This document shows, one piece after another, positions 10,271 to 59,124 of a stretch of 64,000 nucleotides of DNA. Origin of the DNA: a virus. The stretch spans positions 1-64,000 of the IMG/VR virus record IMGVR_UViG_3300023110_000023; one strand, given 5' to 3'. Made by a program: the position numbers and the translations under genes. How positions within the stretch are numbered: position 1 is the first letter of the stretch; every line of letters starts with the position of its first letter. The notes below the pieces were generated by a model that was not told the origin of the DNA, did no database searches, and saw nothing but the letters and a program-made list of their open reading frames with translations.

Positions 10271-10310
10271 ACCGCTTTCGTCATAAACCCCTTCGCTCAA
10301 GGAGGGGGGC

Positions 10311-14304: not shown

Positions 14305-14348
14305 CCTTGCTCATCATGTTGATATTGCGAAGCATTGATATACCCCCT
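14305..14348 (+). repeat. 44-bp exact direct repeat copy 1 (contains class-E promoter)
   Basis: CCTTGCTCATCATGTTGATATTGCGAAGCATTGATATACCCCCT identical to 14718-14761. Confidence 0.95.
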
Positions 14349-14364
14349 TCACTTCCCAATCATC

Positions 14365-14715
14365 ATGGCCGACCAATGCCCTATCAAGTGGTTCAATGCT
14401 GACGAGATGGTGGATGCAATCGCGTTCCCCGAAAACGAACAGCGTTCAATGACGATTCAAGAAGTCAAGGAGATGGCTTGGTCGGACATCATGGAACAGG
14501 TTGAGTTTGAGTGTGATATTGAAGTCAATGGCTCGTTCATCACCGATAAGTTCGGAGTTCAGTCGTTCATCGTTTCAAAGTTCAAAGACGGCATCTATGG
14601 CGAGGCAGTCATGTGCGTTGTTGGTTCTTACGATGTGGCTAAGGTTGTAGCCGACCGCCACGAAGGTGCTGGTGTAGTCCAATACGCAAGCAACGGCTTC
14701 GTCATCGTGTGCTGA
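14365..14715 (+). CDS. accessory hypothetical protein between the 44-bp repeats
   Basis: ATG 30 nt after box at 14335. Confidence 0.7.
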   Translation: MADQCPIKWFNADEMVDAIAFPENEQRSMTIQEVKEMAWSDIMEQVEFECDIEVNGSFITDKFGVQSFIVSKFKDGIYGEAVMCVVGSYDVAKVVADRHEGAGVVQYASNGFVIVC

Positions 14716-14717
14716 TT

Positions 14718-14761
14718 CCTTGCTCATCATGTTGATATTGCGAAGCATTGATATACCCCCT
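14718..14761 (+). repeat. 44-bp exact direct repeat copy 2 (contains class-E promoter)
   Basis: Identical to 14305-14348. Confidence 0.95.
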
Positions 14762-14777
14762 ATGCGTAGCACTCACC

Positions 14778-15449
14778 ATGACCCGACACACTCACATCGT
14801 TGAGTTCACGACCCCGATGACCGAGCGCGAACTGAAAGTCGCTATCGGCAAGGCCGTTTCCTTTGTCCAAGAAGAATCCAACACCATCGGGCGACAGGTT
14901 GCCGAAGCAGATGCGTTCCGCTGGGTCAAGCACCCATTCACCAACATCACATACGAGGACAAGCAAGTGGACAAGCCCACCAGCCTCCCCTTTTACACCA
15001 CGCACGACTTTCAGTTCCGCATGGTTGATGGAAAAATCCAGCAATACGCAGTTATCCACCTATCCATACAAGTCGGTGGACAGGTCAAGGGCGATTCAAT
15101 GACTCTTGACGAGATGCCCGAAGACTTGACAATTGAAGGCATCAAGTTCGGCAAGACCCGAAGCCGTCAAGGAACGGTTTGGATGGACTTCACGGGCGAT
15201 TCTCACGCCTTCGTCTTCTTCGTTGCCTTGAAGGACTGCATGACCTTTGAAACGCCCGATGAACTTCGTGAGGCTTATGTCGGCTACGGGCGACAACCCA
15301 CAGACTTCCAACGCATTGACTCGGCAAGGGGATTCGCACACGGGATTCAGCGAGTCAAGGAAGCAAACGGCATCACAGCCGTTTCGGATGAGAACACCAT
15401 CAAGGCCATCACGCTTCTCTATGAAGACCGCAAGGACAGGCAGGGTTGA
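14778..15449 (+). CDS. accessory hypothetical protein (class-E cassette)
   Basis: ATG 30 nt after box at 14748. Confidence 0.7.
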   Translation: MTRHTHIVEFTTPMTERELKVAIGKAVSFVQEESNTIGRQVAEADAFRWVKHPFTNITYEDKQVDKPTSLPFYTTHDFQFRMVDGKIQQYAVIHLSIQVGGQVKGDSMTLDEMPEDLTIEGIKFGKTRSRQGTVWMDFTGDSHAFVFFVALKDCMTFETPDELREAYVGYGRQPTDFQRIDSARGFAHGIQRVKEANGITAVSDENTIKAITLLYEDRKDRQG

Positions 15450-15450
15450 T

Positions 15451-15942
15451 TCACTCTTCCTCATCGGGATTGAGCCGACCGAACTTCCGCTGGATGCGTT
15501 TGCGTTGGCGACCTTCCGCCTTGCGTCTGCGAGTGTTGTCCTTGCGAGCCGATTCGTTGGGCAATCGGGTGTTGTAGTCATCGCCCTGTTCCTCAAACCG
15601 CTTGCGTTCACGGGCGCGATGACAATTGGAACACACGGGTTCGCACTTCTTGATTTCAGCGAGGACTCGCTTCCACGCGATTCCATCGGAGAGCATTCGT
15701 GAGATGGTTCGTTCCTTCGTATCGCGGTCAATATGGTCAAACTCCATCGCCCACACATTCCTGTGGCCTTCAAATCCACAGTCGGTGCAGACGAGTTCCT
15801 TTTTGTATTCCTCATATTGACGCTTGATTCTCTCTCGCCTTCGCTTCGCCTTCTCAAGATACATCTGCCTGTTGCTTGCGTAGTGCTGTGGGTTGTATCG
15901 CTTTTGATACGCCTTCCGCTTCGCAGGGTCTTTGTAAGGCAT
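15451..15942 (-). CDS. HNH endonuclease
   Basis: CTDCG...EFDHID...KCEPVCSNCHR; ATG 31 nt after TTCAATAACC box on minus strand. Confidence 0.85.
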   Translation of the reverse strand: MPYKDPAKRKAYQKRYNPQHYASNRQMYLEKAKRRRERIKRQYEEYKKELVCTDCGFEGHRNVWAMEFDHIDRDTKERTISRMLSDGIAWKRVLAEIKKCEPVCSNCHRARERKRFEEQGDDYNTRLPNESARKDNTRRRKAEGRQRKRIQRKFGRLNPDEEE

Positions 15943-15974
15943 TGAACCGCAATAGCGGTTCGCGGTTATTGAAT

Positions 15975-16098
15975 GAAAGGGTGGAGAGCAGGGGGTAGAA
16001 AGGGCATACCGACCCACCAGCGAGCCCCTGCCCTCCGTCATCACCGATGTGAGAGCCGAAACACAAGGAGGTGGTGATGAGAGGTGATTCCCGCTGGC
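15975..16098 (-). ncRNA. putative pseudoknotted small RNA upstream of HNH gene
   Basis: Begins exactly 30 nt after TTTAATAAGGTGGG box; 9-bp and 12-bp interleaved stems whose G-U pairs work only on the minus strand; 8-bp hairpin insert. Confidence 0.65.
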
Positions 16099-16150
16099 GA
16101 ATTGAAGACCAACCCCCACCTTATTAAACCAAGTGCGTGGTGGAAATTGC

Positions 16151-16558
16151 ATGAGCGACCTCATGGAACTCACCAAGAAGCAATTGATTGCCCTGTGCGA
16201 AGAAGCAGGGTTGGACACGGATGGAACGAAGGCTGACCTCGTTGCTCGTTTGGAAGCACCCGCAGAATCACCCGCAGAAGCCCCTGTGGAAGCCGTTGTT
16301 GAGGAAGTGGTGGAAGAACCCACCCCAGCCCCAACAAAGCCCAAGAAAGCCACGCAGAAGGGCTCTATGCCCGATGTGGAAGACGAGAGCCTCTCCAGCG
16401 AGGATTTTGTCAAGCAAGCATACCTCGCTATCCTCAAGCGTGAGGCTGACCCAAGTGGCCTCAAGCACTACACACGGGCATTGGATTTGCACCGAACCTT
16501 GACTCGCCAGCAGGTCTTGGACAAACTCTCCGATTCGGAAGAAGCCAAGTCCCTGTGA
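16151..16558 (+). CDS. SAP-domain + DUF4214-like protein
   Basis: LTKKQLIALCEEAGLDTDGTKADLVARL (SAP); FVKQAYLAILKREADPSGLKHY (DUF4214-like). Confidence 0.75.
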   Translation: MSDLMELTKKQLIALCEEAGLDTDGTKADLVARLEAPAESPAEAPVEAVVEEVVEEPTPAPTKPKKATQKGSMPDVEDESLSSEDFVKQAYLAILKREADPSGLKHYTRALDLHRTLTRQQVLDKLSDSEEAKSL

Positions 16559-16621
16559 TTTGAGCGATTAAGACATTGATACGACAAAGGTTTGATATAC
16601 CAGCATCGGCTGGTTCATATC

Positions 16622-16843
16622 ATGTCGGACAACCGAACACCGAAGAAGGGACACACCGAATGGGGAACAGGTCTTGGGCGAATCCACCTCGTTCATTCCA
16701 TGACAGGTCGCTGTATGGGATGCAAGAAGAAAGTCGCCAAGTGGGTCGGCCAGCAAGACATGACTGTTCAAGAAGTCAAGGAAACCGACTTCGGCCTTTG
16801 TTCCTTCGTGAGCGACTTTTGGCTTGACCAATTGACGAACTGA
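16622..16843 (+). CDS. small Cys/His accessory protein (class-E cassette)
   Basis: Boxes at 16576/16592; ATG at +30. Confidence 0.6.
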   Translation: MSDNRTPKKGHTEWGTGLGRIHLVHSMTGRCMGCKKKVAKWVGQQDMTVQEVKETDFGLCSFVSDFWLDQLTN

Positions 16844-57255: not shown

Positions 57256-57713
57256 CGCGCCCCAGCGACTACACGAAGGCGTGGAGGATTCTCCGCACGA
57301 ACTGTGGCTTGAGCCACTATCAAGTGCGAGCGATATTCAGCGAGCATCTCGGAGGGCTCGGTGTCCATAAGAACCTCGCTGGTCGTGAACTTCGCAGGGA
57401 AGAAGCCCTGTGGGAACAGGAAGCCGAAGCATTCGCTTTGATGCTGAATGACCCCGACCCCACCAAGTTCGCTGACAGGCTGTATCAAGCCGTGTGGGAA
57501 GGTGATGAACCCCAATTGGCGTATGTGCTGGTTCGGCTGGTGGAGAAGCGTGTCCGAGAATGGAATGGCTGGGGCGAGGAAGAACGCCAGCGAATCAAGG
57601 AACGGGTGCTTCGGAGGCTGTCGCGATACGAGAAGCGAACAGGGCTTCAAGCGTGGACTGACCGCCACTTGCTGACCTATCTCCACATCAACGATGTCCA
57701 CTTTGAATCATGA
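57252..57713 (+). CDS. hypothetical protein
   Basis: ATGA overlap with polB; GGTGA RBS. Confidence 0.6.
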   Translation: MTRPSDYTKAWRILRTNCGLSHYQVRAIFSEHLGGLGVHKNLAGRELRREEALWEQEAEAFALMLNDPDPTKFADRLYQAVWEGDEPQLAYVLVRLVEKRVREWNGWGEEERQRIKERVLRRLSRYEKRTGLQAWTDRHLLTYLHINDVHFES

Positions 57714-57832
57714 CCACTCAAATATCAATGGTTGAGATTTGTAAGTGGAAAGGTATATATGCAACCGCTGTATCACAATGGTTTGTCGGACTACGAGCCG
57801 ACACCCAAACCGAAACACAGGAGATGAAAAAT

Positions 57833-59002
57833 ATGGGAATGATTGAGAATATGCGAGATGCCGTTGAAATCAACGGTGGCCGATTGAGCGAAGAACGATA
57901 CCTTGAGGAAGTGCTACGACTGACCGAGAGCGAAGGGGGTTCAACCACCATCGCTTCCTTGAAGTCCAATGCTTTCAACAGCAAGCGAATGGAATCAGCG
58001 GGAATCACCCGTGTGTCCATCGGTGCTGACAAAATGGTGTGGACTGTGAGCCTTGCAGAAGACATGATGAACGGCAACACCAGCACCCTTCAAACGAACT
58101 TCGTTCAGCGCGACACCAGCCAAGACTTCAACACGGATGAAGGATGCTTCTATGGCGTTCCACGACGCTCGCCATCGGACTATCCCGACTTCCTCCAGCA
58201 ATACATCATCCCACGCGGAACTCTCCAATACGAAGAGTCCGACCGCAACGAGATGCGTCTGTTTGCTGTTGCATTCAAGAACGGCTGGAATGTCGCCATT
58301 GACGGTGCAAAGGGCTGTGGGAAGACGATGGGCATTCGTGCCTTCGCTTCCGAAGTCGGTATGCCTGTCCTTCGTGTGAACTGTTCCGAAGGCTTCACCG
58401 AAGAGTCCTTCATCGGCTACAACACGCTCAAGAACGGTGAGATGACTTGGATTGACGGGATGCTTCCAATCGCCATGCGATACGGTTGCCTTCTCATCTT
58501 TGACGAGTTCCGTTCCGCACGACCCGAAATCATGACCGCATGGAACGCTGTCGGTGATTCGGGACAATTGCTCTTGACGGACAACAACAACGAAGTCGTG
58601 TCGGCTCACGCTGACTTCCGCACCTTCGCCACCATGAACCCGCTTGATGGGTATTCGGGTGGACAGGACATCAACCAAGCAACCCTTGACCGCTTTGACC
58701 TCAACATGAAGGTGGACTACCTTCCCGAAGAGAAGGAAATCAAGGTCATCTGTCAGCAGTCGGGCGTGAACAACATCGCCCTCGCTCGCCAATTGGTGTC
58801 CTTCTCCAACGACCTCCGCCGAATGAAGAAGGAAGGCACTCTTGAGTCCGACACCAGCACTCGTATGCTGGTTGCGATGATGGAAGCCAGCCTTGACTTC
58901 AACATGACCGAGATGGTTGAGTTCGTGATGCTTGGTCGCTATCAGCCCCATGAGATTGATGAAATCAAGGCTGTGGCTCGCGCTCGCTTGAGCGATTATT
59001 GA
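57833..59002 (+). CDS. MoxR/CbbQ/CobS-like AAA+ ATPase
   Basis: GAKGCGKT, LIFDE, FATMNP, ATLDRF, STRML. Confidence 0.88.
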   Translation: MGMIENMRDAVEINGGRLSEERYLEEVLRLTESEGGSTTIASLKSNAFNSKRMESAGITRVSIGADKMVWTVSLAEDMMNGNTSTLQTNFVQRDTSQDFNTDEGCFYGVPRRSPSDYPDFLQQYIIPRGTLQYEESDRNEMRLFAVAFKNGWNVAIDGAKGCGKTMGIRAFASEVGMPVLRVNCSEGFTEESFIGYNTLKNGEMTWIDGMLPIAMRYGCLLIFDEFRSARPEIMTAWNAVGDSGQLLLTDNNNEVVSAHADFRTFATMNPLDGYSGGQDINQATLDRFDLNMKVDYLPEEKEIKVICQQSGVNNIALARQLVSFSNDLRRMKKEGTLESDTSTRMLVAMMEASLDFNMTEMVEFVMLGRYQPHEIDEIKAVARARLSDY

Positions 59003-59012
59003 GGCTCACACA

Positions 59013-59073
59013 CGCTGGGAGATTGGGTCGGGCTGGGGGGTTCTCCCAGCGGGGTGTTTCTGCCCCCCAGCCC
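59013..59073 (+). other. H-type pseudoknot-forming intergenic element
   Basis: CGCTGGGAGA/TCTCCCAGCG (10 bp) interleaved with GGGCTGGGGGG/CCCCCCAGCCC (11 bp). Confidence 0.6.
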
Positions 59074-59124
59074 ACACCCTGTCCATCCCTGTGCTTGATA
59101 ACGGTGGGGGCTGAACTCCAGCCC

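Follow-up and report, generated by a model that had tools for sequence, protein, structure and literature searches.

The 64,000-nucleotide (nt) stretch of DNA analysed here, referred to throughout as the window, comprises positions 1 to 64,000 of IMG/VR virus record IMGVR_UViG_3300023110_000023. The record is that of a tailed virus, 78 kb in length and 97% complete, and carries terminase, portal, capsid and tail genes, a helicase and PolB. A non-coding stretch of 208 nt lies between the gene of an HNH endonuclease on the minus strand and the divergent gene of a SAP-DUF4214 protein on the plus strand. This region very probably encodes a member of a real structured RNA family, a small RNA folded as an H-type pseudoknot of two interleaved helices, P1 and P2. 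The parts of the predicted RNA, the promoter boxes and the flanking genes are as follows (bp, base pairs; aa, amino acids):

15972..16098, minus strand: predicted small RNA; its 5′ end is placed at G16098 (+/-3) and the core pseudoknot ends at 15983
16113..16128, minus strand: putative promoter box of the RNA, TTTAATAA plus GGTGGGGG; the hexamer TAATAA starts 28 nt before G16098
16098-16090, minus strand: P1 5′ arm, GCCAGCGGG, which pairs with 16024-16016 and is extendable to 16101
16065..16089, minus strand: start of loop 1, with the anti-Shine-Dalgarno-like motifs AAUCACCUC (16089-16081) and ACCUCCUU (16072-16065)
16038..16080, minus strand: inserted hairpin of 8 bp, UCAUCACC (16080-16073) with GGUGAUGA (16045-16038), enclosing a loop of 27 nt
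16036-16025, minus strand: P2 5′ arm, GGAGGGCAGGGG, one side of a 12-bp helix, which abuts the P1 3′ arm directly
16024-16016, minus strand: P1 3′ arm, CUCGCUGGU, extendable to 16013
15995..16015, minus strand: loop 3, with an optional small hairpin (GGG...CCC)
15994-15983, minus strand: P2 3′ arm, CCCCUGCUCUCC, followed by a conserved ACC (15982-15980)
to ~15971, minus strand: pyrimidine-rich tail of the predicted RNA, ACCCUUUCAUUC, 3′ of the core pseudoknot
15964..15973, minus strand: putative HNH promoter box (proximal), TTCAATAACC, whose hexamer CAATAA begins 29 nt upstream of the ATG
15451..15942, minus strand: HNH endonuclease gene, 163 aa, with its ATG at 15942
16151..16558, plus strand: divergent gene of the SAP plus DUF4214 protein (Pfam SAP 3.6e-10, DUF4214 7.4e-11)

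The box, P1, P2 and the inserted hairpin were all found on the minus strand where an earlier reading of this DNA, here called the original prediction, had placed them, together with the three G-U pairs that it had described, which lie in the 9-bp and 12-bp helices. The arms follow the order P1-5′, P2-5′, P1-3′, P2-3′, which is that of an H-type pseudoknot, as had been proposed. P1 can be extended to 12 bp (16101-16090 with 16024-16013), and the ACCUCCUU motif sits within the inserted hairpin. Folding limited to nested pairs recovers the hairpin and P2, with a z-score of -3.8 on the minus strand versus -2.6 on the plus strand. An open reading frame (ORF) of 337 aa (15451..16464, minus strand) extends without a stop across the RNA region in the frame of HNH. 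This was rejected as a spurious gene because it overlaps the SAP gene in antisense, is interrupted by non-triplet insertions and deletions among relatives and contains a conserved MPYKDP start at 15942. No Rfam 15 family was reported by cmscan at an expectation value (E) up to 10 in window positions 15300-16700, nor at E up to 1 in five relatives. ARAGORN reported no fold resembling a tRNA or tmRNA in the window, and the likeness of the 12-bp helix plus ACC to a tRNA is only a lead.

The topology of the RNA is shared with the classical H-type pseudoknots of viral frameshift sites, telomerase and SAM-II, namely S1-L1-S2-S1′-L3-S2′ with 0-2 nt between S2-5′ and S1-3′. This short junction implies coaxial stacking of the two helices. 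The window RNA differs from the classical forms in its unusually long S2 (12 bp), in a loop 1 which carries an invariant CCUCC and often a hairpin, and in its position outside a coding region.

The relatives used for comparison were retrieved by protein anchors, with the HNH, SAP and capsid proteins searched against viral contigs and the HNH protein against metagenome contigs, which yielded ~1.5 Mb of related loci. Members of the RNA family were found with an anchored pseudoknot scanner and with a covariance model, R2, consisting of P2 plus the tail; the sensitivity of a single-sequence covariance model, R1, was too low. Alignments of full-length members by MAFFT misplace the arms, so P1 was aligned in an anchored manual register (Python) and P2 by covariance model. 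The fold is present in ten distinct lineages: the window, L032, L079 (same as L037), L059, L100, L207, L081, L109, L326 and L055. The other 79 metagenome loci scanned lack the RNA.

The helix sequences are nearly all different between these lineages, while the pairing is maintained. For P2 in the ten lineages, the tool count on the covariance-model alignment gives standard pairs in 98.3% of 120 cells, with both sides changed in 10 of the 12 pairs. None of 500 shuffles of the ten sequences reaches any of five measures, and slid registers are 52-63% paired. A Python count over the first nine lineages gives 98.1% paired and double changes at 9 of 12 positions. P1, aligned from its inner pair in nine lineages (Python), is 100% paired with compensatory changes at 7 of 7 positions, and of the close relatives L109 and L326, one has G-C in this helix where the other has A-U, a compensatory double change. 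All arms taken together across the lineages contain 24 G-U pairs and no A-C pairs, which places the RNA on the HNH-sense strand only and bears out the orientation originally read from the G-U pairs of the window. The differences in loop-1 length between lineages are not multiples of 3, and the region is therefore regarded as non-coding. When ~1 Mb of related sequence was scanned by anchored folding energy, true members reached -38 kcal/mol or lower, while the best background was -27. Model R2 recovers its eight training sequences at E < 2e-12, and two lineages outside the training set, L081 and L326, at 7e-05 and 1e-10 respectively. Judged by sequence comparison, the fold exceeds chance, and its decisive support is the set of compensatory changes in 9-10 independent lineages.

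The conserved anatomy can be described from 5′ to 3′. P1 spans 7-12 bp and its 5′ arm is followed after 1-5 nt by CCUC(C), usually in the form (C)ACCUCC. The segment that follows is variable, with 4-47 nt that often form a hairpin; L079 and L055 lack it. P2 has 12 bp (13-14 in three lineages), begins with two G-C pairs and has a G-rich 5′ strand, which is separated from the P1 3′ arm by 0-2 nt. Loop 3 is 13-30 nt long, in which (U)CCAUA(C/A) is frequent. An ACC and a pyrimidine-rich tail follow P2, and the promoter box of the next gene stands 8-20 nt further on. The features invariant among the lineages are the CCUC(C) after the P1 5′ arm, the 12-bp G-rich P2 and the ACC after P2.

The box TTTAATAAGGTGGG (16128-16115, minus strand) upstream of the RNA is the sole exact copy in the window. 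The same A/T box read on the plus strand (TTATTAAA) stands 30 nt before the ATG of the SAP gene and would be shared by the RNA and SAP promoters. Throughout the window, 31 ATGs are preceded by a hexamer which starts 27-30 nt (mostly 29) upstream, against ~4.5 expected by chance. These hexamers are TGATAA, TCATAA, TTAAGA and similar, followed by bases of the GGTGGGG type or the AACCCC/AACCGC type (examples lie at 10281, 13036, 36713 and 52723). A hexamer ~29 nt before an ATG is the arrangement of archaeal TATA-box promoters that drive leaderless mRNAs, and its recurrence implies that the first genes of operons would be leaderless in this virus. Operon-internal genes carry a Shine-Dalgarno (SD) sequence of the GAGGUGAU type at 12 of 41 starts, against a background of 5.9%.

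The same spacing recurs around the RNA. The promoter hexamer stands 28-29 nt before P1 in nine of the ten lineages, and a second box is found 29-30 nt before the ATG of HNH or of the next gene. Two units are predicted from this spacing, an RNA that starts at the first base of P1 and a leaderless HNH mRNA that starts at or near its own ATG. The suggestion that the transcript begins at the first P1 base is thus supported, since the hexamer 28 nt upstream has the spacing found before leaderless ATGs, and the RNA probably has its own transcription start there. The idea that it is transcribed directly into the HNH gene fared less well, as the HNH gene has a promoter box of its own 29 nt before its ATG; this ATG lies 40 nt after P2, rather than the ~35 nt given for the ORF start.

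The virus fits a magrovirus-type marine archaeal tailed virus. Magroviruses are abundant viruses of uncultured Marine Group II archaea. The assignment is made because the promoter and leaderless architecture is of archaeal type, because the gene content includes terminase, portal and PolB, and because the related contigs that could be placed (the TARA ocean contig L207 and salt-marsh runs) are marine or estuarine. The phage database held no DNA match for the virus and one distant capsid match only, and the assignment therefore leans on the promoters, the gene content and the related contigs. The RNA apparently represents a previously undescribed family, so far found only in some of the magrovirus-like tailed viruses of marine archaea. 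Its place is in the head-tail region, always beside the SAP-DUF4214 gene and usually directly upstream of HNH. The magrovirus literature searched contains no mention of promoters, non-coding RNAs or pseudoknots.

The preferred reading of the locus, to which a probability of roughly 0.55 is given, is an independently transcribed H-type pseudoknot small RNA of ~80-130 nt, the member of a new family, which perhaps acts via an anti-SD-like loop. An archaeal-type promoter of its own, with the hexamer 28-29 nt before the first P1 base, would drive the RNA. It would form a transcription unit apart from the HNH gene, which would use the proximal promoter and would most likely be leaderless. The stacked P1 and P2 helices would provide a stable scaffold, and this might conceivably present the invariant loop motif for recognition by a partner in trans. 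Such a partner could be the GGAGG-type SD sequences on mRNAs, or a protein.

The case for the loop begins with the motif itself. CCUC(C) is the only invariant single-stranded motif in the ten lineages, amid variable surroundings, and is identical to the anti-SD core of 16S rRNA; the window RNA carries AAUCACCUC and CACCUCCUU. Two roles for the motif inside the molecule were considered and set aside. In some lineages CCUCC could pair with the P2 G-run, but L079 and L055 do not allow this, and the pairing is not conserved. A major-groove triplex between loop 1 and P2, comparable to the pyrimidine-motif triplex of telomerase and SAM-II, is disfavoured and would not be expected in the window RNA, as the purines lie on the strand antiparallel to loop 1. 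The invariance of CCUCC is thus unexplained within the molecule, and a scaffold which presents the motif to a trans partner is therefore favoured, though with low confidence.

The 3′ end of 16S rRNA (helix 45, then GAUCACCUCCU) is alike in that (AU)CACCUCC stands 1-5 nt beyond a helix, and the viral SD sequences are complementary to this motif. The two differ in that only 5-8 nt are alike, that the viral motif is held in a pseudoknot loop instead of a free 3′ end, and that SD binding is hypothetical. Action of the RNA through anti-SD-like pairing is accordingly regarded as tentative, with the odds against it. A bolder pair of proposals is unlikely. The RNA could be a viral mimic of the 16S 3′ end, whose (CA)CCUCC would sequester SD sequences or a factor that reads the anti-SD and so shift host translation to leaderless mRNAs. 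Alternatively, it could be the RNA subunit of a minimal HNH-only ribonucleoprotein nuclease, which would move with the SAP gene as a cassette.

Several observations count against an independent small RNA acting through its loop. In an H-type pseudoknot, loop 1 lies along the groove of P2, and the CCUCC is perhaps poorly accessible in the minimal members L079 and L055. Parts of the window are matched by 11 salt-marsh RNA runs, and contigs from four of these were examined. These contigs are of low depth (2-7x) and cover HNH and SAP; none covers 15958-16083 and one spans 16084-16387. Ends and strand are not readable from contigs, so that these speak neither for nor against expression of the RNA. 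The T-tract after P2 is weak, so that transcription may continue into HNH, in which case the RNA would be a 5′ leader. The adjacency of HNH in 7 of 10 lineages, with a distance from P2 to the start codon of 39-42 nt in six of them (49 nt in L100), argues for some link to HNH. The search for members was made in part with a scanner that demands pairing, which introduces an ascertainment bias. On the other side, the genomic context, promoter spacing and motifs are independent of that scanner, and L081 and L326 were found by the P2-only model and yet have a paired P1.

The strongest competitor, though a good deal less probable than the independent small RNA, is a cis-acting 5′ leader or attenuator. 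The distal promoter would then read through into HNH or the next gene, and the fold (the P2 hairpin and pyrimidine tract) would control termination, stability or translation. In a variant of this model, the fold may insulate the proximal leaderless promoter from upstream transcription. The placement of the element is consistent with such a role, as it always ends 8-20 nt before the promoter box and 39-53 nt before the start codon, and its GC-rich 12-bp hairpin followed by ACC and pyrimidines is terminator-like. Weaker pseudoknots of the same topology, lacking CCUCC, occur immediately before promoters at window positions 59014-59080 and in L292 and L294. The two boxes also belong to different promoter classes (distal, GGTGGGG type; proximal, AACCGCG type), which makes dual timing conceivable. 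Against a leader, the loop motif stays invariant while the downstream genes vary (HNH, tail tube, unknown). There is no sequestration of an SD sequence or start codon, HNH has its own leaderless-type promoter, and the T-tracts are short for an archaeal terminator. The sequence before promoters in the window is not more structured than background (p = 0.87), and the notion of a terminator before every promoter in the window was rejected on the same figure.

The second pseudoknot in the window, at 59014-59080 on the plus strand, has P1 formed by CGCTGGGAGA/TCTCCCAGCG and P2 by GGGCTGGGGGG/CCCCCCAGCCC, with ACACC next. No promoter of its own is evident, and its R2 score is 19 bits (E 0.003-0.03). 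The pseudoknot directly follows the stop of the gene at 57710-59002, and the promoter box of an ORF of 53 aa (59125) comes shortly after it. Further weak R2 matches (18-30 bits) occur at other positions in the relatives G005, G004 and G002, namely L290 1501-1582, L291 1501-1570, L292 1501-1571 and L294 1501-1575. All four fold as P1/P2 pseudoknots with a G-rich P2 of 10-12 bp. The ACC tail is kept in L290-L292, with AAAC in its place in L294. A promoter box stands 28-31 nt upstream in L290 and L291, and loop 1 of L291 carries AUCUCCACC. These weaker matches suggest a broader class of pseudoknots in magroviruses.

Next in order is the reading closest to the RNA-nuclease module of the original prediction, in which the RNA is a partner of the HNH nuclease, serving as cofactor, guide, targeting scaffold or antitoxin and bound, for example, by the Arg/Lys-rich C-terminal helix. 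It is considered improbable. The HNH protein consists of an N-terminal helical region, a CxxC...DH...N...CxxCH core and the Arg/Lys-rich C-terminal helix, which ends in DEEE. The PHROGs matches are to HNH endonuclease families only (phrog_2255, 1e-22; phrog_3106, 1.6e-22) and the sole Pfam match is a weak one to HNH (E 0.016), so that the protein was rightly described as a small HNH endonuclease lacking RuvC. Its invariant residues are C52, C55, H70, C100, C104 and H108 (alignment A8), and C107 is also invariant in five RNA-adjacent HNH proteins (A9). The structure model (predicted local distance difference test score, pLDDT, 83) contains helices and one HNH core. Comparison with solved structures, by sequence against PDB and by Foldseek, gave no significant match and weak HNH rows only.

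A partnership is favoured by the position of HNH directly 3′ of the RNA in 7 of 10 lineages and by the basic C-terminal extension found on every RNA-adjacent HNH, where short forms of 117-128 aa have neither tail nor RNA. A unit of SAP, RNA and HNH is also found in both orientations between the same flanks. The occurrence of the two elements apart is the main objection. No fold is found upstream of HNH in ~30 distinct magrovirus-type HNH lineages or in any of 80 more distant HNH loci, and the co-occurrence of fold and nuclease was thus borne out only in part. Of the ~30 RNA-less lineages, ~20 have the same basic tail, and the tail was discarded as an RNA-binding signature for this reason. The RNA-less HNH genes sit in operons behind an SD sequence or directly behind their own promoter box, and a box equivalent to that of the window HNH precedes some of them, for example in L003. 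Conversely, the RNA is found with no adjacent HNH. In L055 it lies after the SAP gene and before the tail-tube gene, with no HNH found in the 19-kb record, and in L109 and L326 the gene after it is an unknown ORF, with an HNH ~2 kb away in L109.

A guide function is likewise at odds with the variation in the RNA, which contains no hypervariable single-stranded segment. It begins with the paired arm of P1 and its sole variable insert is a stem-loop. The inserted hairpin, for which the original prediction had proposed a check of guide-like variation, is a stem of variable length that L079 and L055 lack, and no complement of its loop was found elsewhere in the window. A guide RNA, or an obligatory cofactor of the HNH nuclease, is therefore improbable. 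The adjacency in 7 of 10 lineages and the seemingly joint mobility of the unit speak for the proposed module, and the separate occurrence of RNA and HNH and the lack of a guide-like segment speak against it. Of the three options first offered, an independent small RNA fits best and an RNA-associated nuclease is not supported as stated; on balance, the RNA is likely to be independent of HNH for its function.

Known RNA-nuclease pairs lead to the same comparison. IscB with its omega-RNA (HEARO, RF02033) and the HNH-only IshB of IS200/IS605 also have a pseudoknotted RNA immediately upstream of the HNH gene on the same strand. IscB, however, is a protein of ~400-500 aa with a split RuvC, an inserted HNH and PLMP/TID domains, whereas the window protein has 163 aa, an HNH core only and no RuvC or other IscB domain. 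The window RNA is 80-130 nt long, unlike omega-RNA in having no match to the Rfam HEARO model and no guide-like variable 5′ segment, and the HNH gene at this locus has its own promoter, while RNA and HNH occur apart. Type III toxin-antitoxin systems (ToxI/ToxN) resemble the locus in that a pseudoknotted RNA immediately precedes a nuclease gene of the same orientation. The antitoxin RNA there forms a tandem array, in contrast to the single-copy RNA of the window, where no direct repeats occur in 15900-16200. The HNH fold is of the deoxyribonuclease (DNase) type and not that of ToxN/AbiQ, and the terminator that controls the ToxIN ratio has no evident counterpart at the window locus.

The HNH gene also resembles the free-standing HNH homing endonuclease genes of tailed phages, which are likewise small HNH genes with their own promoter between conserved structural genes. 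Such cassettes are sporadically present among close relatives, in varying position and orientation, and the window HNH shares this feature. We know of no free-standing HNH homing cassette that carries a conserved upstream pseudoknot RNA gene. Other HNH lineages have long upstream intergenic regions with different strong structures that R2 does not detect. These lie ~250 nt upstream of HNH in both L086 and L078, and occur also in L058 and L135; among them is a long CCGGGG...CCCCCGG helix, after which comes CUUCUACAACCUCACUAAAUAACC.

A still less probable alternative assigns the RNA to the other neighbour, as a partner of the SAP-DUF4214 protein or as a morphogenesis or packaging RNA of the head-tail module. 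The SAP-DUF4214 gene adjoins the RNA in all ten lineages, divergently in nine, with the RNA immediately downstream of it in L055. One A/T box is common to the RNA and SAP promoters in the window, and SAP (Pfam PF02037) is a nucleic-acid-binding domain. Many relatives nevertheless carry the SAP gene and lack the RNA, among them L033-L036, L040 and L003, and the adjacency may just reflect a recombination hot spot that receives HNH cassettes.

The arrangement of the locus among relatives is variable. HNH may point away from the SAP gene, follow it in the same direction or be missing, and the whole unit is inverted in some lineages. Between the p163 and p142 homologs, the structural genes that flank it, the unit of SAP, RNA and HNH occurs either way round (the window versus L079, L081 and L100), as if it moves as one block. 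A search of the window for inverted repeats flanking the unit, which could explain the inversion, found none. Five contigs, L049 (7330-7560, plus strand) and L298-L301 (~1950-2150), contain a GC-rich structured region of ~230 nt immediately downstream of the SAP gene. This region contains a perfect 12-bp helix, GGACGGTGGGGG/CCCCCACCGTCC, then ACC, and precedes an ORF of 48 aa encoding a zinc ribbon. It may correspond to a distinct, though related, RNA at this locus.

The possibility that the inverted repeats act at the DNA level (as a cruciform, an origin or an operator) or arose by chance can be practically dismissed, for although they sit in a divergent promoter region, the interleaved arms are incompatible with a cruciform, the complementary strand could not form the helices (24 G-U, no A-C) and the covariation is above every shuffle.

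One further repeat in the window involves promoter boxes. A direct repeat of 66 nt, at 14305-14370 and 14718-14783 (86% identity, first 44 nt identical), contains a double promoter box, and its two copies enclose the gene at 14365-14715. The double box recurs a third time, in a looser form, at 16576-16601.

To our knowledge, very few structured RNA families of archaeal viruses have been described. The covariation of this candidate family is unusually clean for so few sequences, and with a defined promoter and an invariant motif the RNA is directly testable. The leaderless promoter grammar, with a box 29 nt before the ATG, lets non-coding transcription units be predicted from sequence in these viruses. 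Were either the anti-SD mimicry or a link to HNH or SAP to prove true, the RNA would represent a new mode of viral control in archaea.

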